The notes: generated from the letters alone by a model not told the origin. Positions 3,687 to 60,562 are shown, counted from the stretch's first letter. The stretch: DNA of 64,000 bases from Escherichia coli (GCF_003790525.1 NZ_CP033635.1), one strand, 5' to 3'. Program-made: numbers and translations.

Positions 3687-3853
3687 TTATTGTGGTCGGT
3701 GACGCTGACTCTGGCAGATCTGACCCGTTTTTACATAATCGAGAAATGCGCGCAAGCCGCAGGACATATACTGGCGGTTTGGGTAATACATTTGGAAGCT
3801 GTGCTGTAAGGGCGCTAGAAATAGAGCCCTGAATTATTTATGCAGCACGGAAT

Positions 3854-4827: not shown

Positions 4828-7110
4828 TTACATAGATTGAGTGAAGGTACGAGTAATAACGTCCTGCTGCTGTTCTTTAGTCAGCGAGTTGAAACGTACT
4901 GCGTAGCCAGATACACGGATGGTCAGCTGCGGATATTTTTCCGGGTTTTCCATCGCGTCGAGCAGCATTTCACGGTTCATCACGTTAACGTTCAGGTGCT
5001 GACCACCTTCGATGGACGCTTCGTGGTGGAAGTAACCATCCATCAGACCAGCCAGGTTGGTCTTACGAACTTCGTCGTCTTTACCCAGTGCGTTCGGAAC
5101 GATAGAGAAGGTGTAGGAGATACCATCTTTAGCGTAAGCAAACGGCAGTTTAGCAACGGAAGTCAGAGAGGCTACTGCACCTTTCTGGTCACGACCGTGC
5201 ATCGGGTTAGCACCCGGCCCGAACGGCGCGCCAGCACGACGACCGTCTGGGGTGTTACCAGTTTTCTTACCATACACAACGTTAGAAGTGATGGTCAGAA
5301 CAGACTGAGTCGGGATAGCGTCACGGTAGGTGTGCAGTTTCTGAATTTTCTTCATGAAACGTTCTACCAGGTCAACAGCCAGGTCATCTACACGCGGATC
5401 GTTGTTACCAAACTGCGGGTATTCGCCTTCGATTTCGAAGTCGATAGCCAGACCGTCTTCGTCACGAATCGGTTTAACTTTCGCATATTTGATTGCAGAC
5501 AGGGAGTCAGCAGCAACGGACAGACCAGCGATACCACACGCCATGGTGCGGATAACGTCACGGTCGTGCAGCGCCATCAGAGAGGCTTCGTAGCTGTACT
5601 TGTCGTGCATGTAGTGGATGATGTTCAGTGCAGTGATGTACTGTTTAGCCAGCCAGTCCATGAAGTGATCCATGCGCTCCATCACTTCATCGTAGTTCAG
5701 GAGATCGCCTTTGATCGGTTCAGACTTCGGACCAACCTGCATTTTCAGTTTTTCGTCAACGCCGCCGTTGATTGCGTACAGCATGGTTTTCGCCAGGTTT
5801 GCACGCGCACCGAAGAACTGCATTTGTTTACCAACGATCATCGGGCTTACGCAGCAAGCGATAGCGTAGTCATCGTTGTTGAAGTCCGGACGCATCAGGT
5901 CATCGTTCTCATACTGCAGAGAAGAGGTGTCGATGGACACTTTAGCAGCGAATTTCTTGAAGTTCAGCGGCAGTTTTTCGGACCACAGAATGGTCATGTT
6001 CGGTTCCGGAGACGGACCCATGGTGTACAGGGTGTTCAGGAAACGGAAGCTGTTTTTGGTAACCAGGGTACGACCGTCGAGGCCCATACCACCGATAGAT
6101 TCGGTTGCCCAGATTGGGTCGCCAGAGAACAGTTCATCGTATTCCGGAGTACGCAGGAAGCGAACCATACGCAGTTTCATGACCAGGTGGTCAACCATTT
6201 CCTGCGCTTCTTGTTCGGTGATCTTGCCAGCTTTCAGGTCACGTTCGATGTACACATCCAGGAAGGTGGAGGTACGACCGAAGGACATTGCAGCACCGTT
6301 CTGAGACTTAACAGCAGCCAGGTAGCCGAAGTAAGTCCACTGGATAGCTTCCTGAGCGTTGGTAGCCGGACCAGAGATGTCGTAGCCGTATTTCGCAGCC
6401 ATTTCTTTCATCTGACCCAGAGCGCGGTGCTGTTCAGCGATTTCTTCGCGCAGACGGATAGTCTGTTCCAGGTTTACGCCGTTTTCCAGATCAGCCTGCA
6501 GAGAGGTGAACTGAGCGTATTTGTCTTTCATCAGGTAGTCGATACCGTACAGCGCAACGCGACGGTAGTCACCGATGATACGACCACGGCCATAAGCATC
6601 TGGCAGACCGGTCAGAACACCGGATTTACGGCAACGCAGGATGTCCGGAGTGTAAACGTCGAACACGCCCTGGTTGTGAGTTTTACGGTATTCAGTGAAG
6701 ATTTTTTTGATCATCGGGTCCAGTTCGCGGTTGTACGCTTTGCAGGAACCTTCGATCATTTTGATACCACCGAACGGGATAAGAGCACGTTTCAGCGGAG
6801 CTTCAGTCTGCAGACCAACAACTTTTTCCAACGCTTTGTTGATGTAGCCAGCGTCGTGAGAGGTGATGGTGGAAGCAACAGCGGTGTCAAAGTCAACTGG
6901 CGCGTGAGTGCGGTTTTCCAGTTTAACGCCTTCCATTACTTTGTCCCACAGGGTGGTGGTCGCTTCAGTAGCGCCAGCCAGGAAGGACTCGTCACCCTCG
7001 TACGGAGTGTAGTTTTTCTGAATGAAGTCACGGACGTTTACTTCATTCTGCCAGTCACCTTTGGTAAAACCTTCCCAGGCTGTGGCTAACTTTTCATTAA
7101 GCTCGGACAT
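4828..7110 (-). CDS. pflB: Pyruvate formate-lyase (glycyl radical enzyme)
   Basis: 760-aa [18 protein letters not shown]...; glycyl-radical motif RVSGYAV near the C-terminus; strong codon bias leaves a 750-aa antisense open frame. Confidence 0.97.
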
Positions 7111-13710: not shown

Positions 13711-15136
13711 TAATGCCGATCAGTTAAGGATCAGTTGACCGATCCAGTGGCTGTGTAAGAATCCGGAAACGCTCACTTGTTTCCGGATTTTTTTATGCAC
13801 ATTGGACAGGCTCTTGATCTGGTATCCCGTTACGATTCTCTGCGTAACCCACTGACTTCTCTGGGGGATTACCTCGACCCCGAACTCATCTCTCGTTGCC
13901 TTGCCGAATCAGGTACTGTAACGCTACGCAAGCGCCGTCTTCCCCTCGAAATGATGGTCTGGTGTATTGTTGGCATGGCGCTTGAGCGTAAAGAACCTCT
14001 TCACCAGATTGTGAATCGCCTGGACATCATGCTGCCGGGCAATCGCCCCTTCGTTGCCCCCAGTGCCGTTATTCAGGTCCGCCAGCGCCTGGGAAGTGAG
14101 GCTGTCCGCCGCGTGTTCACGAAAACAGCGCAGCTCTGGCATAACGCCACGCCGCATCCGCACTGGTGCGGCCTGACCCTGCTGGCCATCGATGGTGTGT
14201 TCTGGCGCACACCGGATACACCAGAGAACGATGCAGCCTTCCCCCGCCAGACACATGCCGGGAACCCGGCGCTCTACCCGCAGGTCAAAATGGTCTGCCA
14301 GATGGAACTGACCAGCCATCTGCTGACGGCTGCAGCCTTCGGCACGATGAAGAACAGCGAAAATGAGCTTGCTGAGCAACTTATAGAACAAACCGGCGAT
14401 AACACTCTGACGTTAATGGATAAAGGTTATTACTCACTGGGACTGTTAAATGCCTGGAGCCTGGCGGGAGAACACCGCCACTGGATGATACCTATCAGAA
14501 AGGGAGCGCAATATGAAGAGAGCAGAAAACTGGGTAAAGGCGATCATCTGGTGAAGCTGAAAACCAGCCCGCAGGCACGAAAAAAGTGGCCGGGACTGGG
14601 AAATGAAGTGACAGCCCGCCTGCTGACCGTGACGCGCAAAGGAAAAGTCTGCCATCTGCTGACGTCGATGACGGACGCCATGCGCTTCCCCGGAGGAGAA
14701 ATGGCGGATCTGTACAGTCATCGCTGGGAAATCGAACTGGGATACAGGGAGATAAAACAGACGATGCAACTGAGCAGGCTGACGCTGAGAAGTAAAAAAC
14801 CGGAGCTTGTGGAGCAAGAGCTGTGGGGTGTCTTACTGGCTTATAATCTGGTGAGATATCAGATGATTAAAATGGCGGAATATCTGAAAGGTTACTGGCC
14901 GAATCAACTGAGTTTCTCAGAATCATGTGGAATGGTGATGAGAATGCTGATGACATTGCAGGGCGCTTCACCGGGACGTATACCGGAGCTGATGCGCGAT
15001 CTTGCAAGTATGGGACAACTTGTGAAATTACCGACAAGAAGGGAAAGGGCCTTCCCGAGAGTGGTAAAGGAGAGGCCCTGGAAATACCCCACAGCCCCGA
15101 AAAAGAGCCAGTCAGTTGCTTAACTGACTGGCATTA
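13711..15136 (+). mobile_element. Insertion sequence IS4, complete copy
   Basis: Exactly 1426 bp; imperfect terminal inverted repeats TAATGCCGATCAGTTAAGG (left) and GCTTAACTGACTGGCATTA (right); single intact transposase ORF; flanked by a perfect 13-bp direct repeat. Confidence 0.93.
13795..15123 (+). CDS. insG: IS4 transposase
   Basis: Track ORF 13777..15123; start trimmed to [20 protein letters not shown] (442 aa), recognised as the IS4 transposase; no frameshift or internal stop. Confidence 0.93.
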
Positions 15137-52317: not shown

Positions 52318-52671
52318 ACTCTCTCCTTATAACCAATTGTTCTTGTTTTGTTAACATTGATAACAATTCGGTCAGTCTGTCGGAGAGACAAGAGAATGCC
52401 AAATATAAATTTTGTGTATCTTTTTCTGAAAATGAACTAAGGATTGAGGGATATATATCACGTGTATTTATTTATTGGATATTCAATAGATGTTGAATCA
52501 ATGAATTACTCGTTCAGGTAATAAAGAAAGATTCATGGAATCTATAAATAAAAGATTTGTCACGTATTGAGTAAACACTACTGGTTTAAATGGCGGTCAT
52601 TTGTTGTTATTATTAAGTCCAATGTCATTTGCAGGCATTATCATATTTACGAAAAAATCAGGATGATAACG
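52318..52671. promoter_or_regulatory. Divergent AT-rich control region (ssuE promoter / elfA promoter)
   Basis: 354-bp AT-rich non-coding spacer between divergently transcribed ssuE and elfA; corresponds to the Cbl-activated ssu promoter and the H-NS-silenced elf promoter; individual sites not resolved. Confidence 0.45.
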
Positions 52672-53211
52672 ATGAAAAAAAATGTATTGGCGGCGTTTAT
52701 AACTGTGATATGTACAACTTCAAGTGTTATGGCGGCTGATGATAATGCCATCACGGATGGCTCGGTTACGTTTAATGGTAAAGTCATTGCTCCTGCCTGT
52801 ACGCTGGTTGCTGCGACGAAAGATTCCGTGGTGACTTTACCAGATGTTAGTGCAACGAAGTTGCAAAGTAATGGTCAGGTTTCTGGGGTGCAAACTGATG
52901 TGCCAATTGCATTAGAAGATTGTGATATTACCGTAACAAAAAATGCAACGTTCACTTTTAATGGCACAGCGGATACTACGCAGATTACAGCGTTTGCTAA
53001 CCAGGCCTCATCTGAGGCTGCTACAAACGTGGCCCTGCAAATGTATATGAATGATGGTACAACGGTCATTACGCCAGACACAGAAACCGGGAATATTTTG
53101 TTGCAGAGTGGAAATCAAACGCTAACTTTTAAAGTAGATTATATCGCTACGGGTAAAGCGACGTCAGGTAATGTCAATGCGGTAACAAATTTCCATATTA
53201 ATTATTATTAA
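52672..53211 (+). CDS. elfA: Chaperone-usher fimbrial major subunit ElfA (YcbQ)
   Basis: Track ORF 52567..53211; start trimmed to MKKNVLAAFITVICTTSSVMAADD (signal peptide), 179 aa. Confidence 0.9.
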   Translation: MKKNVLAAFITVICTTSSVMAADDNAITDGSVTFNGKVIAPACTLVAATKDSVVTLPDVSATKLQSNGQVSGVQTDVPIALEDCDITVTKNATFTFNGTADTTQITAFANQASSEAATNVALQMYMNDGTTVITPDTETGNILLQSGNQTLTFKVDYIATGKATSGNVNAVTNFHINYY

Positions 53212-53241
53212 TATCAGCCATTAATTTTTAATTAATTAATA

Positions 53242-53278
53242 CCCTTCCAGTGTCCTGGAGGGGATATTCATTTTTTTA
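53242..53278 (+). terminator. Stem-loop with T-run between pilin and chaperone genes (attenuator)
   Basis: CCCTTCCAG-TGTC-CTGGAGGGG (one G-U pair) followed within 8 nt by TTTTTTT; position typical of stoichiometry-setting attenuators in chaperone-usher operons. Confidence 0.5.
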
Positions 53279-53291
53279 AGAGTGACTATTT

Positions 53292-53993
53292 ATGAAAACT
53301 TGCATAACAAAGGGAATTGTGACCGTAAGTTTAACGGCAATATTACTCAGCTGTTCGTTCACATGGGCGGCAGGTAAAGGTGGGGTCGGACTTGCAGCAA
53401 CACGTCTTGTTTATTCGGAAGGTGAAGAGCAAATTTCACTGGGTGTACGTAACACCAGTCCGGATGTTCCTTATCTGATTCAGTCATGGGTGATGACACC
53501 AGATAATAAAAAGTCAGCGGACTTTATTATTACACCACCGCTATTTGTGCTGAATCCGGCAAACGAGAACCTGCTACGCATTATGTACATTGGCGCGCCG
53601 TTGGCGAAAGACAGAGAAACTCTTTTCTTCACCAGCGTACGGGCAGTCCCTTCAACAACGAAGCGGGAAGAAGGCAATACCCTGAAGATTGCCACACAAA
53701 GCGTCATCAAACTTTTCTGGCGACCAAAAGGTTTAGCGTATCCCTTAGCCGAGGCTCCGGCGAAACTACGTTGCACTTCGTCAGCTGACATGGTTACGGT
53801 CAGTAACCCAACACCTTATTTCATTACCCTGACAGACCTGAAAATAGGTGGAAAAGTAGTTAAAAATCAAATGATTTCCCCCTTTGATAAATACCAATTC
53901 TCTCTGCCAATGGGTGCCAAAAACAGCAGCGTAACGTACCGAACTATCAATGACTACGGGGCGGAAACGCCGCAACTCAACTGTAAATCGTAA
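53292..53993 (+). CDS. elfD: Fimbrial periplasmic chaperone ElfD (YcbR)
   Basis: 233-aa ORF with signal peptide; PapD-like chaperone. Confidence 0.9.
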   Translation: MKTCITKGIVTVSLTAILLSCSFTWAAGKGGVGLAATRLVYSEGEEQISLGVRNTSPDVPYLIQSWVMTPDNKKSADFIITPPLFVLNPANENLLRIMYIGAPLAKDRETLFFTSVRAVPSTTKREEGNTLKIATQSVIKLFWRPKGLAYPLAEAPAKLRCTSSADMVTVSNPTPYFITLTDLKIGGKVVKNQMISPFDKYQFSLPMGAKNSSVTYRTINDYGAETPQLNCKS

Positions 53994-54017
53994 TTCGTCT
54001 TCATTTAAGAGAGCGAG

Positions 54018-56600
54018 ATGTATAGAACTCAACGACAACACAGCCTGTTAAGCTCTGGTGGAGTGCCATCGTTTATTGGTGGGCTGGTGGTGTTTGTGTC
54101 GGCAGCGTTCAATGAACAAGCTGAAACCTGGTTCGATCCAGCCTTTTTCAAAGATGATCCCTCAATGGTGGCTGATTTGTCTCGTTTCGAAAAAGGGCAA
54201 AAAATAACGCCAGGGGTTTATCGAGTCGATATTGTTCTGAATCAGACAATTGTAGATACGCGCAACGTCAATTTTGTTGAGATAACGCCAGAGAAGGGGA
54301 TTGCCGCCTGTTTGACGACTGAAAGCCTGGATGCAATGGGCGTGAATACTGATGCGTTTCCGGCTTTTAAACAACTGGATAAACAAGCGTGTGCGCCATT
54401 GGCGGAAATTATTCCGGATGCCAGCGTAACTTTTAATGTGAATAAACTCCGTCTGGAAATTTCAGTACCGCAAATCGCCATCAAAAGTAACGCTCGTGGT
54501 TATGTCCCCCCTGAACGTTGGGATGAAGGGATCAACGCGCTATTACTGGGATATTCTATTCATAGCAGCGCAGGTAGTGATTCTGGCGACAGCTATTTTC
54601 TGAATTTAAACAGTGGCGTTAATTTAGGCCCATGGAGATTGCGCAACAATTCAACATGGAGTCGCAGTAGTGGCCAAACCGCAGAATGGAAGAATCTCAG
54701 CAGCTATTTGCAGCGGGCGGTGATTCCATTAAAAGGCGAACTGACCGTCGGTGATGATTATACGGCAGGCGATTTTTTTGATAGCGTCAGCTTTCGTGGC
54801 GTGCAGCTGGCGTCAGATGACAACATGCTGCCAGACAGCTTGAAAGGGTTTGCGCCAGTGGTGCGTGGTATCGCCAAAAGCAATGCACAGGTAACGATTA
54901 AGCAAAATGGTTACACCATCTATCAAACTTATGTTTCGCCTGGCGCTTTTGAGATTAGTGATCTCTACTCTACGTCGTCGAGTGGTGATTTGTTGGTTGA
55001 AATCAAAGAAGCTGACGGTAGTGTCAATAGTTACAGTGTGCCCTTTTCCAGCGTGCCATTACTCCAGCGTCAGGGACGCATCAAATATGCGGTGACGCTG
55101 GCGAAATACAGAACCAATAGTAATGACCAGCAAGAAAGTAAATTTGCTCAGGCCACGCTGCAATGGGGTGGGCCGAGGGGAACGACCTGGTATGGCGGAG
55201 GGCAATATGCTGAATATTACCGTGCCGCTATGTTTGGTCTGGGTTTTAACCTCGGCGATTTCGGAGCAATTTCGTTCGACGCGACCCAGGCTAAAAGTAC
55301 GCTGGCAGACCAAAGTGAACATAAAGGGCAGTCATATCGTTTTCTGTATGCCAAAACGCTCAACCAATTGGGCACCAACTTTCAATTGATGGGCTACCGC
55401 TATTCGACGTCGGGTTTCTACACCCTTTCCGACACTATGTATAAACACATGGATGGCTACGAATTTAATGACGGTGATGATGAAGATACGCCAATGTGGT
55501 CGCGTTATTACAATTTGTTTTACACAAAACGTGGCAAACTGCAGGTCAACATCTCCCAGCAATTAGGCGAGTACGGTTCGTTTTATTTAAGCGGTAGCCA
55601 GCAAACTTACTGGCATACCGATCAACAGGATCGGCTATTACAGTTTGGCTACAACACGCAAATTAAAGATCTCTCGCTGGGGGTTTCCTGGAACTACAGT
55701 AAGTCCCGTGGTCAACCTGACGCTGACCAGGTGTTTGCACTTAATTTTTCCCTGCCGCTCAATCTGTTGCTCCCCAAAAGTAATGATAGCTATACCAGGA
55801 AAAAAAATTACGCCTGGATGACCTCTAATACCAGTATCGATAACGAAGGGCACACTACACAAAACCTGGGTTTAACGGAGACACTACTCGATGACGGTAA
55901 TCTGAGCTACAGCGTGCAACAGGGATATAACAGCGAGGGGAAAACGGCTAATGGTAGCGCCAGCATGGACTACAAAGGGGCGTTTGCAGATGCTCGAGTG
56001 GGCTACAACTACAGCGATAACGGCAGTCAACAACAACTGAACTACGCTCTTTCAGGCAGTTTAGTTGCCCATTCGCAGGGTATTACGTTGGGTCAATCAT
56101 TGGGTGAAACTAATGTCCTGATTGCCGCGCCAGGCGCCGAAAATACTCGTGTGGCGAACAGCACCGGGCTGAAAACTGACTGGCGTGGATATACCGTTGT
56201 GCCTTATGCCACTTCTTATCGGGAAAATCGAATTGCACTTGATGCGGCGTCGTTAAAACGTAACGTGGATCTTGAAAATGCCGTAGTAAACGTGGTTCCC
56301 ACCAAAGGGGCATTGGTTCTGGCGGAGTTCAATGCCCATGCGGGGGCTAGGGTATTAATGAAAACATCAAAGCAGGGTATGCCGCTGAGATTTGGTGCAA
56401 TGGCAACACTGGATGGCGCACAAACAATTAGCGGTATCATTGATGATGATGGTTCGCTCTATATGTCTGGTTTGCCGGCGAAGGGAACGATAACTGTACG
56501 CTGGGGCGACGCTCCCGATCAAATTTGTCATATCAGTTACGAGCTTACCGAACAACAAATTAACGCTGCGATTACGCGGATGGATTCAGTATGCGAATAA
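54018..56600 (+). CDS. elfC: Fimbrial outer membrane usher ElfC (YcbS)
   Basis: 860-aa ORF; in-frame TAA at 54006-54008 fixes the ATG at 54018 as the first possible start. Confidence 0.9.
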
Positions 56601-57661
56601 TTTCAGGGGATAGTAGTGTGTTAAGACTCCGGCTTCTTTTGACTGCTGTTTTAATGCTGTGGGGATTTCATGCCGCCGCTTATACCGGGCAGTGTCATAC
56701 CACTCAGGGGAATCCGTATATTGGCGTCAATTTTGGCGTTAAAACCCTGGAGGAGGAAGAGAATACGGCTGGAAAAGTCAAAGATGAATTTTATCAGTGG
56801 AGTGAATCGAATGATTATTATGTTTCCTGCGATTGCGATAAAGACAATGTCAGAAGTGGTCTATGGGCATTCGCTGCGGATTCTCCGTTAGTTTATTTGG
56901 GCGACAACTGGTACAAAATTAACGATTATCTTGCCGCAAAGGTGCTATTAGGAGTGAAAGGTAACACACCTTCGGCCGTACCTTTTGAAAATCTCGGTAC
57001 AGGAAGTGATACCCGATGGCATATTTGCGATCCCGGTGGTCAACGTTTGGGCGGCAAGGGGGCAAGCGGCAATAGCGGAAGTTTTTCACTGAAAATATTG
57101 CAGCCGTTTGTCGGTTCGGTCGTCATTCCTCCTATGGCGCTGGCGCGACTATATGAGTGTTACAACATACCCGCAAGTGATTCCTGCACGACTACAGGTA
57201 CACCGGTTTTAGTGTATTACCTGTCTGGTACGATTAATTCACTTGGCTCATGTTCTGTCAATTCTGGAGAGACAATAGAGGTTGATTTGGGGGATGTATT
57301 TGCTGCCAATTTCCGTGTTGTAGGGCATAAACCGCTTGGATCCAGAACGGCAGAACTCTCAATTCCAGTCAGGTGTAATACCGGAAACGCAGAGCTGGTT
57401 AATGTTAATTTGAGTCTGACGGCAACCAGTGATCCCGATTATCCTCAGGCAATCAAGACATCACGACCAGGTGTCGGTGTTGTGGTCACCGACAGCCAAA
57501 ACAACATTATTTCGCCTGCCGGTGGCACACTGCCGCTATCCATCCCTGACGACGCGGACAGCTTCGCTCGAATGAATGTTTATCCGGTCAGCACGACAGG
57601 TGTACCACCGGAAACCGGGAGCTTTGAAGCCACAGCAACGGTGAGAATAAACTTTGACTGA
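56591..57661 (+). CDS. elfG: Fimbrial adhesin-like protein ElfG (YcbT)
   Basis: 356-aa ORF with signal peptide; overlaps the elfC stop by 10 nt. Confidence 0.88.
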
Positions 57662-57672
57662 TATGTGAACGT

Positions 57673-58215
57673 ATGAAAAAGAACACAATATTTCAAGTCG
57701 TTATCTTATCATTCACTTTGCTTTATATGCATGTCGGGATAGCTGGACCTGAACAAGTCAGTATGCATATTTATGGTAATGTGGTCGATCAGGGCTGTGA
57801 TGTTGCCACCAAAAGTGCATTACAAAATATTCATATTGGTGATTTTAATATCAGTGATTTTCAGACCGCGAATACCGTAAGCACTGCTGCTGATTTGAAT
57901 ATCGATATCACCGGTTGTGCCGCTGGTATTACTGGCGCGGACGTCCTTTTTAGCGGCGAGGCTGACACCCTTGTGCCGACACTGCTCAAATTAACTGACA
58001 CAGGCGGAAGCGGTGGTATGGCAACGGGGATTGCTGTGCAAATTCTTGATGCGCAAAGTCAGCAAGAAATCCCGCTCAATCAGGTCCTACCTCTTACGCC
58101 CTTAAAAGCCGGGGATAACACACTCAAATATCAACTTCGTTATAAGTCCACAAAGGCGGGAGCAACGGGCGGTAATGCGACGGCGGTTCTCTATTTTGAT
58201 CTGGTTTACCAGTGA
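57673..58215 (+). CDS. ycbU: Fimbrial-like minor subunit YcbU
   Basis: 180-aa ORF with signal peptide and pilin-like C-terminal strand (LYFDLVYQ). Confidence 0.87.
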   Translation: MKKNTIFQVVILSFTLLYMHVGIAGPEQVSMHIYGNVVDQGCDVATKSALQNIHIGDFNISDFQTANTVSTAADLNIDITGCAAGITGADVLFSGEADTLVPTLLKLTDTGGSGGMATGIAVQILDAQSQQEIPLNQVLPLTPLKAGDNTLKYQLRYKSTKAGATGGNATAVLYFDLVYQ

Positions 58216-58222
58216 AGGAGTG

Positions 58223-58738
58223 ATGTTGAAACAGATAATCTGGATTCTGTTCTTACTGGGATTAACGGGGGGCTGTGAGCTATTTGCCCATGATGGCACG
58301 GTCAACATTAGCGGATCGTTTCGCCGTAATACATGCGTGCTGGCACAGGATAGCAAGCAAATCAATGTGCAGTTAGGCGACGTCTCGCTGACACGTTTTT
58401 CTCATGGGAATTATGGCCCGGAGAAATCGTTCATCATTAATTTGCAGGATTGCGGAACAGATGTCAGCACGGTTGACGTCACCTTTTCAGGAACCCCCGA
58501 CGGAGTACAGAGCGAAATGCTGTCCATTGAAAGTGGTACGGATGCAGCCAGTGGGCTGGCAATTGCAATTCTGGATGATGCGAAGATATTGATTCCGCTT
58601 AACCAGGCGAGTAAAGACTACAGCCTACATAGCGGTAAGGTGCCATTAACTTTTTACGCGCAATTGCGACCTGTCAATAGCGATGTGCAGTCGGGTAAAG
58701 TGAATGCCAGCGCGACATTTGTACTTCATTATGACTAA
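58223..58738 (+). CDS. ycbV: Fimbrial-like minor subunit YcbV
   Basis: Track ORF 58175..58738; start trimmed to MLKQIIWILFLLGLTGGCELFA, 171 aa; C-terminal FVLHYD. Confidence 0.87.
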   Translation: MLKQIIWILFLLGLTGGCELFAHDGTVNISGSFRRNTCVLAQDSKQINVQLGDVSLTRFSHGNYGPEKSFIINLQDCGTDVSTVDVTFSGTPDGVQSEMLSIESGTDAASGLAIAILDDAKILIPLNQASKDYSLHSGKVPLTFYAQLRPVNSDVQSGKVNASATFVLHYD

Positions 58739-59441
58739 TACGTGGAACAGATTGGCGCTCTTGATTTTCGCCGTTTTATCGCTGCTGGTGGCGAGTGAAT
58801 TGCAGGCAGGAGTGGTGGTCGGCGGAACGCGATTTATCTTTCCGGCAGACAGAGATTCGATATCTATTTTATTGACTAATACCAGTCAGGAATCCTGGCT
58901 TATTAACAGTAAAATCAATCGCCCAACGCGTTGGGCTGGGGGTGAAGCGTCGACAGTACCAGCACCATTACTGGCCGCTCCGCCACTTATTCTCCTGAAG
59001 CCCGGTACTACAGGCACATTGCGCTTGCTGAGAACGGAAAGCGACATCTTGCCCGTGGATCGCGAAACGCTATTTGAGTTAAGCATTGCCAGCGTGCCAT
59101 CCGGCAAAGTTGAAAATCAGAGCGTAAAAGTGGCGATGCGCTCGGTATTTAAACTGTTCTGGCGACCCGAAGGTTTGCCGGGCGACCCGCTGGAAGCTTA
59201 TCAACAATTACGCTGGACACGGAATTCGCAGGGTGTACAACTCACTAACCCAACGCCTTACTACATTAACCTGATTCAGGTGAGCGTAAATGGTAAAGCG
59301 TTAAGTAATGCGGGAGTTGTGCCACCTAAAAGCCAGCGTCAGACAAGCTGGTGTCAGGCTATAACACCGTGTCATGTCTCCTGGCGGACGATAAATGATT
59401 ACGGCGGGTTGAGTGCAAAGAAGGAGCAAAATCTGCCCTGA
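58731..59441 (+). CDS. ycbF: Second PapD-like fimbrial chaperone YcbF
   Basis: Track ORF 58704..59441; start trimmed to MTNTWNRLALLIFAVLSLLVA, 236 aa. Confidence 0.87.
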   Translation: MTNTWNRLALLIFAVLSLLVASELQAGVVVGGTRFIFPADRDSISILLTNTSQESWLINSKINRPTRWAGGEASTVPAPLLAAPPLILLKPGTTGTLRLLRTESDILPVDRETLFELSIASVPSGKVENQSVKVAMRSVFKLFWRPEGLPGDPLEAYQQLRWTRNSQGVQLTNPTPYYINLIQVSVNGKALSNAGVVPPKSQRQTSWCQAITPCHVSWRTINDYGGLSAKKEQNLP

Positions 59442-59551
59442 AACAGGCTCGGAAAACGTTTGCGCTTTTTTTGCCACAGGTCAATTCCCTTTTGGTCCGA
59501 ACTCGCACATAATACGCCCCCGGTTTGCACACCGGGAATCCAGGAGAGTTC

Positions 59552-60562
59552 ATGTACTACCCCTTCGTTCGTAAAGCCCTTTTCCAGCTCGATCCAGAGC
59601 GCGCTCATGAGTTTACTTTTCAGCAATTACGCCGTATTACCGGAACGCCGTTTGAAGCACTGGTGCGGCAGAAAGTGCCTGCGAAACCTGTTAACTGCAT
59701 GGGCCTGACGTTTAAAAATCCGCTTGGTCTGGCAGCCGGTCTTGATAAAGACGGGGAGTGCATTGACGCGTTAGGCGCGATGGGTTTTGGATCTATCGAG
59801 ATCGGTACCGTCACGCCACGTCCACAGCCAGGTAATGACAAGCCGCGTCTCTTTCGTCTGGTAGATGCCGAAGGTTTGATCAACCGTATGGGCTTTAATA
59901 ATCTTGGCGTTGATAACCTCGTAGAGAACGTAAAAAAAGCCCATTATGATGGCGTCCTGGGTATTAACATCGGCAAAAATAAAGATACGCCGGTGGAGCA
60001 GGGTAAAGATGACTATCTGATTTGTATGGAAAAAATCTATGCTTATGCGGGATATATCGCCATCAATATTTCATCGCCGAATACCCCAGGACTACGCACA
60101 CTGCAATATGGCGAAGCGCTGGATGATCTCTTAACCGCGATTAAAAATAAGCAAAATGATTTGCAAGCGATGCACCATAAATATGTGCCGATCGCAGTGA
60201 AGATCGCGCCGGATCTTTCTGAAGAAGAATTGATCCAGGTTGCCGATAGTTTAGTTCGCCATAATATTGATGGCGTTATTGCAACCAATACCACGCTCGA
60301 TCGTTCTCTGGTTCAGGGAATGAAAAATTGTGATCAAACCGGTGGCTTAAGTGGTCGTCCGCTTCAGTTAAAAAGCACAGAAATTATTCGCCGCTTGTCA
60401 CAGGAATTAAACGGTCGCTTACCGATCATCGGTGTTGGCGGCATTGACTCGGTTATCGCTGCGCGTGAAAAGATTGCTGCGGGGGCCTCACTGGTGCAAA
60501 TTTATTCTGGTTTTATTTTTAAAGGTCCGCCGCTGATTAAAGAAATCGTTACCCATATCTAA
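59552..60562 (+). CDS. pyrD: Dihydroorotate dehydrogenase (quinone)
   Basis: Track ORF 59525..60562; start trimmed to [21 protein letters not shown] (336 aa). Confidence 0.96.

Follow-up and report, generated by a model that had tools for sequence, protein, structure and literature searches.

The question raised by the seven-gene chaperone-usher cluster at positions 52318-59441 of a 64,000-nucleotide (nt) stretch of Escherichia coli DNA (GCF_003790525.1, NZ_CP033635.1; this whole stretch is hereafter the window) is which fimbria it encodes, and what is contributed by its second chaperone and its two additional pilin-like genes. We consider it very probable that the cluster is the known chromosomal elfADCG-ycbUVF (Ycb/ELF) operon, encoding a gamma-1 chaperone-usher fimbria orthologous to Salmonella bcf, for which a working model of assembly is given below. 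The operon has already been named and experimentally expressed, and the locus itself adds no new biology; of more interest are the place and start of its second chaperone gene, and the unusual allele of its usher gene.

Identity and gene content of the cluster

An open reading frame (ORF) scan of the window identified seven open frames between ssuE and pyrD, all on the + strand and all free of frameshifts and stops:

52672-53211, + strand: elfA, major pilin, 179 residues (NCBIfam, PDB, RefSeq name)
53292-53993, + strand: elfD, first chaperone, FimC/SfaE-like, 233 residues (NCBIfam, PDB)
54018-56600, + strand: elfC, usher, 860 residues here and 866 elsewhere (NCBIfam, PDB)
56591-57661, + strand: elfG, predicted two-domain tip adhesin, 356 residues (Pfam, PDB, NCBIfam)
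57673-58215, + strand: ycbU, minor pilin, 180 residues (NCBIfam, PDB)
58223-58738, + strand: ycbV, minor pilin, FimF/FimI-like, 171 residues (NCBIfam, PDB)
58731-59441, + strand: ycbF, second chaperone, 236 residues from the conserved start (NCBIfam, PDB)

The 7.1-kilobase (kb) block shares 99.7% nt identity with E. coli SMS-3-5 and 92.7% with K-12, and at both of these loci RefSeq gives the same seven names, elfA, elfD, elfC, elfG, ycbU, ycbV and ycbF; ElfA itself is identical to SMS-3-5 WP_000742542.1. The gene identities, order and roles proposed in a preliminary description of this DNA agree with the RefSeq names of such near-identical loci and with our NCBIfam, Pfam and PDB searches. Two of its statements hold only in part. 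Overlaps of 8-10 nt are present at two of the six junctions (elfC/elfG, 10 nt; ycbV/ycbF, 8 nt), but gaps of 7-80 nt separate the genes at the remaining four, the junctions from elfA to ycbF measuring, in order, +80, +24, -10, +11, +7 and -8 nt. Similarly, all seven genes are intact in the sense that none carries a frameshift or stop, but elfC is a rare variant allele of 860 rather than 866 codons.

Predicted roles of the encoded proteins

A domain search of ElfG, YcbU and YcbV, as suggested in the preliminary description, returned adhesin and pilin domains for the first and pilin domains for the other two. The Pfam Fimbrial match of ElfG (PF00419) is limited to residues 211-356, while its residues 33-356 align with residues 4-326 of the LpfD adhesin (PDB 5afo; E = 3e-26), several cysteines included. 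Because the pilin domain is confined to the C-terminal part of a protein that 5afo matches over its full length, ElfG is, on comparative grounds, a two-domain adhesin, with a predicted N-terminal receptor-binding domain at about residues 31-205 and a C-terminal pilin domain at 211-356; its NCBIfam matches are LpfD and BcfD. Pilins accompany this adhesin in the form of ElfA, YcbU and YcbV. ElfA has BcfA as its best NCBIfam match and FimA as its best PDB match (E = 4e-16). For YcbU, matches were to BcfE (1e-35) and FimF (3e-21) in NCBIfam, and to Salmonella FimA (1.5e-15) and FimF (4.5e-11) in PDB, and for YcbV to FimF (5e-33) and BcfF (6e-33) in NCBIfam, and to FimF (4e-20) and FimI (1e-18) in PDB.

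The usher assignment of ElfC is supported by a score of 1719 bits against NCBIfam NF011740 (cut-off 995) and by an end-to-end match to FimD structures (E = 1e-263, residues 25-865; 47% identity to FimD). An AlphaFold2 (AF2) model of the variant ElfC superposed on FimD (PDB 3rfz) with template modelling (TM) scores of 0.82 and 0.91, and the N-terminal domain, 24-strand barrel with plug, and C-terminal domains of an usher are all present.

Both ElfD and YcbF resemble chaperones of known structure (FimC, SfaE and PapD chains) and possess the two immunoglobulin-like domains of PapD-like chaperones, together with the conserved arginine of the TR motif and lysine of the KL[FY]WRP motif (KLFWRP in both), residues that anchor the subunit C-terminus in PapD and FimC. 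The best structural matches of ElfD were SfaE and FimC (E = 1e-51), with BcfB and FimC in NCBIfam; that of YcbF was FimC (E = 1e-31). PF00345 and PF02753 are recorded for homologues of YcbF, which itself scored 546 bits against NCBIfam NF008483 (cut-off 357) in an alignment beginning at Met10; RefSeq starts the gene at an upstream ATG at 58704, giving 245 residues. A repeat search of the cluster found only the KLFWRP-coding stretch common to both chaperones, plus chance matches.

With respect to elfA, a longer frame is possible, beginning upstream at a TTG at 52567 (window 52567-52671), and another in-frame ATG precedes the annotated start by 9 nt (MITMKK...). Since the cloning primer for O157 Sakai elfA begins at this upstream ATG (PMC7098969), the true start is ambiguous by three codons.

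A second chaperone with a conserved place and start

The genomic context of YcbF homologues was compared across five two-chaperone loci, comprising the window and four others with homologues of at least 40% identity (a Pseudocitrobacter-like contig, an E. coli auf-type locus, and loci of Enterobacter and Buttiauxella). In all four of the latter the homologue is the second chaperone and follows two minor pilins; homologues of at most 38% identity are the sole chaperones of simple pilin-chaperone-usher operons. In all five loci the second chaperone gene starts within the pilin gene before it, its ATG falling in that gene's last three codons (TTATGnnTRA, an 8-nt overlap), an arrangement expected to couple translation of the two genes. 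A neighbour-joining tree recovered the five second chaperones as one clade, the first chaperones, ElfD among them, grouping with FimC. Further, a C-x5-C pair just N-terminal to the WRTINDYG motif (YcbF residues 208 and 214) is common to the five second chaperones. First chaperones of the Elf/Bcf type share a different cysteine pair (approximately Cys161 and Cys231), and FimC has neither. Together with the ScsC_N-like gene that follows the second chaperone in the Enterobacter locus, these cysteines hint at chaperone disulfides linked to a dedicated oxidoreductase, one that is absent in E. coli.

Taken together, these comparisons support a role having been kept by both copies of an old duplication, and we tentatively propose that YcbF specifically serves tip or minor subunits, a proposal that we place close to, though short of, an even footing. 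A specialised role is preferred over plain redundancy because YcbF belongs to an old and separate clade, retains the conserved start overlap, and carries its own C-x5-C pair. Were YcbF instead a redundant back-up, ElfD would serve all subunits and YcbF would add capacity or persist as a dispensable relic. This could explain why the TR and KLFWRP core motifs are the same in both chaperones, and why, among Keio knockouts of the seven genes, all but that of ycbF lowered invasion of HCT-8 cells (PMC4914927), although the K-12 operon assayed in that study is poorly expressed. Redundancy nevertheless sits poorly with chaperones that are only 35% identical and fall in separate old clades, with the same position and 8-nt coupling being kept in Escherichia (elf and auf), Pseudocitrobacter-like, Enterobacter and Buttiauxella loci, and with a ratio of nonsynonymous to synonymous divergence (dN/dS) of 0.14 for ycbF, given that a purely redundant copy should not last so long; we regard it as possible but rather unlikely. 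Nothing on chaperone function was found in the literature on bcfG, bcfH and aufG. The coupling between second chaperone and last minor pilin, conserved as it is, offers a concrete, testable hypothesis on how the chaperones of Bcf, Elf and Auf divide their labour.

A rare allele of the usher gene

The window aligned to SMS-3-5 (NC_010498.1, reverse complement, approximately 2242249-2178232) as a single colinear match over its 64 kb, with three differences:

54115, + strand: C to A in elfC, giving Ala33Glu
between 54556 and 54557, + strand: 18-nt in-frame deletion in elfC, with loss of FSGANS
26093: synonymous T/C difference in kdsB (Val83)

The deletion, which is flanked by 7-nt direct repeats (TATTCAT), takes FSGANS out of LLLGYSFSGANSIHS. 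Its junction had no single-piece match in the complete RefSeq E. coli genomes carrying the segment (3,726-3,730), and the 61-mer around Ala33Glu had no exact match among the 3,730 complete genomes that carry it. The exact 860-residue protein is, however, found in public databases (AYW29979.1 and RLY46277.1 in GenBank, WP_121831863.1 in RefSeq); because these entries derive from two contigs, the protein is a real, if rare, allele and not a read error.

Each of the two changes could be read as damaging, to the point that the cluster would be functionally dead or crippled and elfC a hidden pseudogene with an open frame. With Ala33Glu, position -3 of the predicted AQA|E signal-peptidase site becomes charged, in a column where the six commonest residues among 142 diverse ushers are A, V, S, L, T and C, with glutamate not among them; an alternative cleavage site (SAA|F) is nonetheless available five residues upstream. 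The FSGANS columns are free of gaps in the same 142 ushers and include G183, conserved in 111 of them, and this prompted consideration of a clear loss of function due to the deletion. As a firm claim this was not upheld. The reading frame is kept, and the spacing between Y179 and F200, reduced from 21 to 15, stays within the natural range of 14-24. The AF2 models, built from a 92-sequence alignment, were as confident for the variant as for the wild type (predicted local distance difference test, pLDDT, 90.5 and 90.1, respectively) and differ only in a shorter beta1-beta2 hairpin (strands 174-186/192-203 in the variant and 174-188/194-209 in the wild type); of the two changes, it was the deletion that was modelled, with no sign of a broken fold. 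An usher begins with a periplasmic N-terminal domain, followed by strand 1 running outwards, and from this standard topology the tip of the beta1-beta2 hairpin should face the cell exterior.

With elfC making up 4% of the window, the post-hoc probability that at least two of three differences fall within it is about 0.005, a hint that selection on the usher has been relaxed or altered in this lineage rather than proof of inactivation. A dead usher is further favoured by the third difference being synonymous and by the absence of both usher changes from the 3,726-3,730 complete genomes carrying these segments. Given the retained frame, the tolerated spacing, the intact model, the alternative cleavage site and the recurrence of the exact protein on two contigs, we consider a dead usher unlikely. 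Short of that, Ala33Glu and the deletion together may weaken or alter fimbrial assembly, although their effect is uncertain. An open frame is not equivalent to a wild-type gene, and genome-based scoring of 'intact' fimbrial operons could misjudge function at loci such as this one.

Regulatory region and post-pilin hairpin

The preliminary description had noted an AT-rich region of 354 base pairs (bp) between the cluster and the divergent ssu operon, and a stem-loop with a T-run between pilin and chaperone genes, both of which were recovered:

52318-52671: divergent ssuE/elfA regulatory region, 354 bp, 30.5% guanine plus cytosine (GC)
52585-52613: predicted promoter-like site (sequence scan)
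52658-52669: published candidate SlyA site TCAGGATGATAA, unchanged in the window (PMC5797941)
53242-53277 (stem 53242-53263), + strand: hairpin between elfA and elfD, a candidate partial terminator or mRNA-stabilising element

The GC content of the ssuE-elfA spacer compares with 46.9% for the cluster and 50-53% for its flanks. Primer TC49 of the study that demonstrated SlyA binding to the ssuE-elfA intergenic fragment by electrophoretic mobility shift assay matches the window exactly at 52318-52339 (PMC5797941). In the same study K-12 elfADCG-ycbUVF is listed as one unit within the H-NS regulon, over-expression of SlyA raised elfADCG-ycbUVF 2.7-fold, and the seven genes rose together in arrays (PMC5797941). 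The suggestion that the cluster is cryptic and H-NS-silenced is consistent with these findings on the K-12 allele. When the whole O157 operon was expressed, the bacteria produced rigid fimbriae, adhered to MDCK cells and formed early biofilm (PMC7098969); the literature on fimbria assembly and on H-NS silencing thus concerns the O157 and K-12 alleles. Promoter-like sites over the cluster were not enriched relative to shuffled sequence.

The hairpin between elfA and elfD has a stem of nine pairs (six of them G-C) closed by a 4-nt loop, with ATATTCATTTTTTT after it. No other terminator-like match in the region scores higher, and the hairpin folds more stably than shuffled sequence (z = -2.3). 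The stem is kept in K-12 as a perfect 9-bp helix, a C-to-T change in the window making one G-U pair. In the auf-type locus and in that of Enterobacter, too, the major pilin gene is followed by a strong hairpin, the Enterobacter one being a classical terminator. In pap and fim, a hairpin after the major pilin gene raises the major-pilin message relative to the downstream message, and by analogy that between elfA and elfD probably raises the ratio of major-pilin to downstream message.

Selection and divergence from K-12

Comparison of the window with K-12 yielded dN/dS values of 0.05-0.24 across the seven genes, indicating purifying selection on all of them. Synonymous divergence (dS) is uneven, at 0.74 for elfG, 0.14-0.28 for elfA, elfD, elfC, ycbU and the ssu genes, and approximately 0.07 for ycbV, ycbF and pyrD. 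From this pattern, the elfG allele may be old or imported, and recombination may have had a breakpoint close to where ycbU meets ycbV. Positive selection on the adhesin gene was also considered, and was ruled out by a dN/dS of 0.08 for elfG, its divergence being mostly synonymous.

The drop in dS from 0.14-0.74 over elfA-ycbU to 0.07 at ycbV and ycbF points to partly separate recombination histories, and the two pilins and chaperone do travel as a block, which in the auf-type locus precedes the adhesin gene; yet that ycbU-ycbV-ycbF forms a separate module, for an alternative fibre or alternative tip built through the same usher, is highly improbable, since the gaps of 11 and 7 nt afford no space for a promoter of its own, the closest matches of YcbV are the adaptor FimF and FimI and not a major pilin, gamma-1 fimbriae with a two-domain adhesin need adaptors for which the cluster holds no other candidates, the ycbU and ycbV knockouts share the phenotype of the elfA, elfD, elfC and elfG knockouts (PMC4914927), and all seven genes rise together in arrays (PMC5797941). 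The separate fibre raised in the preliminary description is therefore not favoured by the comparative evidence, which supports YcbU and YcbV as minor subunits, acting as adaptors or a terminator of the same fibre.

A working model of assembly

We envisage the seven products acting in a single pathway. Transcription would start from the AT-rich ssuE-elfA region, where, going by the literature, H-NS silences and SlyA counter-silences. The hairpin after elfA would let the major pilin message exceed the downstream message, as in pap and fim. In the periplasm, the PapD-like chaperones would cap subunits by donor-strand complementation, and the FimD-like usher ElfC would polymerise them in order. 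ElfG, the LpfD-like adhesin, would enter first and occupy the tip, where it must sit because it has no N-terminal donor strand; YcbV and YcbU would follow as FimF-type adaptors, or possibly as a FimI-type terminator, with the ElfA rod assembled last. ElfD would act as a FimC-like general chaperone. YcbF would be its anciently diverged paralogue, translationally coupled to ycbV and most likely specialised for one or more of the tip or minor subunits.

Several observations weigh against parts of this model. The relative positions of YcbU and YcbV along the fibre, and any role of either in terminating growth, are predicted from their similarity to FimF, FimI and FimA. Co-transcription of ycbUVF with elfADCG is argued from gaps of 7-11 nt, overlaps and array data. 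As for the hairpin, in the minimum-energy fold the run of seven T begins 8 nt past the stem, and terminator-like sites over the cluster are not enriched (12 found, against 7.9 +/- 3.3 expected from shuffles). AF2 is insensitive to destabilising mutations, and an intact model is no proof that the variant usher works. Finally, the K-12 ycbF knockout, alone of the seven, showed wild-type invasion, which speaks against an essential role (PMC4914927).

A more far-reaching reading holds that the second chaperones YcbF, BcfG and that of Auf form a distinct and ancient class of tip-module chaperones and, separately, that the ElfC changes reflect selection on a surface loop and not decay. Members of such a class would be coupled in translation to a FimF/FimI-like minor pilin, would bear a C-x5-C pair of their own, and would fold or deliver minor or tip subunits that are poorly handled by the FimC-like first chaperone; selection on the usher loop could arise, for instance, where the change evades a phage or an antibody that makes use of ElfC. 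We hold this combined reading to be doubtful. If true, Bcf, Elf and Auf would constitute a naturally occurring case of chaperones specialised for different substrates in a single usher pathway.

Distribution and chromosomal setting

At least 80% of the cluster is present in 3,997 of 5,426 complete E. coli genomes in RefSeq, a set that does not include the source strain of the window, and the allele in the window is of the phylogroup F type. About a quarter of complete E. coli genomes are cleanly without the cluster. In one of these, strain AVS0717, the distance from ssuE to pyrD is 236 bp (positions 5001-5236 of the extracted locus, L005); about 62 bp of left flank and about 95 bp of right flank are kept, with unrelated A-rich filler between them, and the flank edges correspond to approximately 52380 and 59452 in the window. 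At its ssuE-pyrD site the Pseudocitrobacter-like contig (L006) carries all seven genes in unchanged order, which implies that the insertion is older than Escherichia or that the site has been reused.

The cluster is bordered by two further features:

52317, - strand: 3' end of ssuE, the left neighbour
59484-59557: PyrD leader (Rfam RF02373, 97.9 bits), directly 3' of ycbF and followed by pyrD

An Rfam search of the region found nothing beyond this leader, and a terminator scan found no convincing intrinsic terminator between the 3' end of ycbF and the leader. Elsewhere in the window, colinearity with the SMS-3-5 annotation predicts an IS4-family transposase gene between ycaL and aroA (approximately 13777-15123).

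Comparison with known fimbrial systems

The closest counterpart of the cluster is the elfADCG-ycbUVF operon of K-12 and O157:H7 (ycbQRSTUVF; E. coli laminin-binding fimbriae; 'loc5'), with which it shares site, genes and order, and which is alike in SlyA site and hairpin. The window differs in an elfG that is strongly diverged from that of K-12 (84.5% nt identity, dS 0.74), and in an usher with a private six-residue deletion and Ala33Glu.

Salmonella enterica bcfABCDEFGH follows the same order of pilin, chaperone, usher, adhesin, two minor pilins and second chaperone. The comparison was made through NCBIfam models and the literature. Gene by gene, the best NCBIfam matches were BcfA, BcfB, BcfD, BcfE and BcfF, together with PRK15192, which we take to represent BcfG, given that the bcf genes are numbered serially in PRK. 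All scores lie below the corresponding Bcf equivalog cut-offs (bits/cut-off: BcfA 117/247, BcfB 207/365, BcfD 120/517, BcfE 123/240, BcfF 114/238, PRK15192 205/296). Bcf has been called the orthologue of Ycb (PMC7886704), and by order and best match the cluster is the orthologue of Bcf without being a Bcf equivalog, and is accordingly filed as Elf/Ycb. Salmonella bcf further includes an eighth gene, bcfH, encoding a thioredoxin-like oxidoreductase, which the window lacks, the PyrD leader following directly after ycbF. In the Enterobacter locus (L008), a gene of 95 codons whose product is ScsC_N-like, possibly bcfH-like, lies right after the second chaperone.

Auf, encoded by the auf-type locus (L007) between glgP and glpD, mainly in phylogroup B2, also has two chaperones, the second of which falls in the YcbF clade and has a start that overlaps the minor pilin gene ahead of it. 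It differs in its chromosomal site and in placing the adhesin-like gene last, after the second chaperone; its chaperones are about 40% identical. Wurpel et al. describe Auf and Ycb as close relatives that exclude one another, and place Auf in phylogroup B2 (PMC3559732); such exclusion agrees with the cluster being present in only 3,997 of the 5,426 genomes.

Type 1 fimbriae (fimAICDFGH) use the same gamma-1 machinery, in which ElfC resembles FimD, ElfD resembles FimC, ElfA resembles FimA, and YcbV resembles FimF and FimI. Unlike the window, fim has one chaperone, adaptors located before the adhesin gene, a mannose-binding lectin domain in FimH, and an invertible promoter. The LpfD adhesin of lpf aligns with ElfG over both domains, albeit with strongly diverged sequence, and lpf is not known to have a second chaperone. 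A precedent for several chaperones in one operon is provided by 987P (Fas), in which FasB, FasC and FasE reportedly each serve a different subunit, as Edwards, Cao and Schifferli are said to have described in J Bacteriol in 1996. With a different usher clade and gene order, 987P offers a lead to mechanism rather than a claim of membership.

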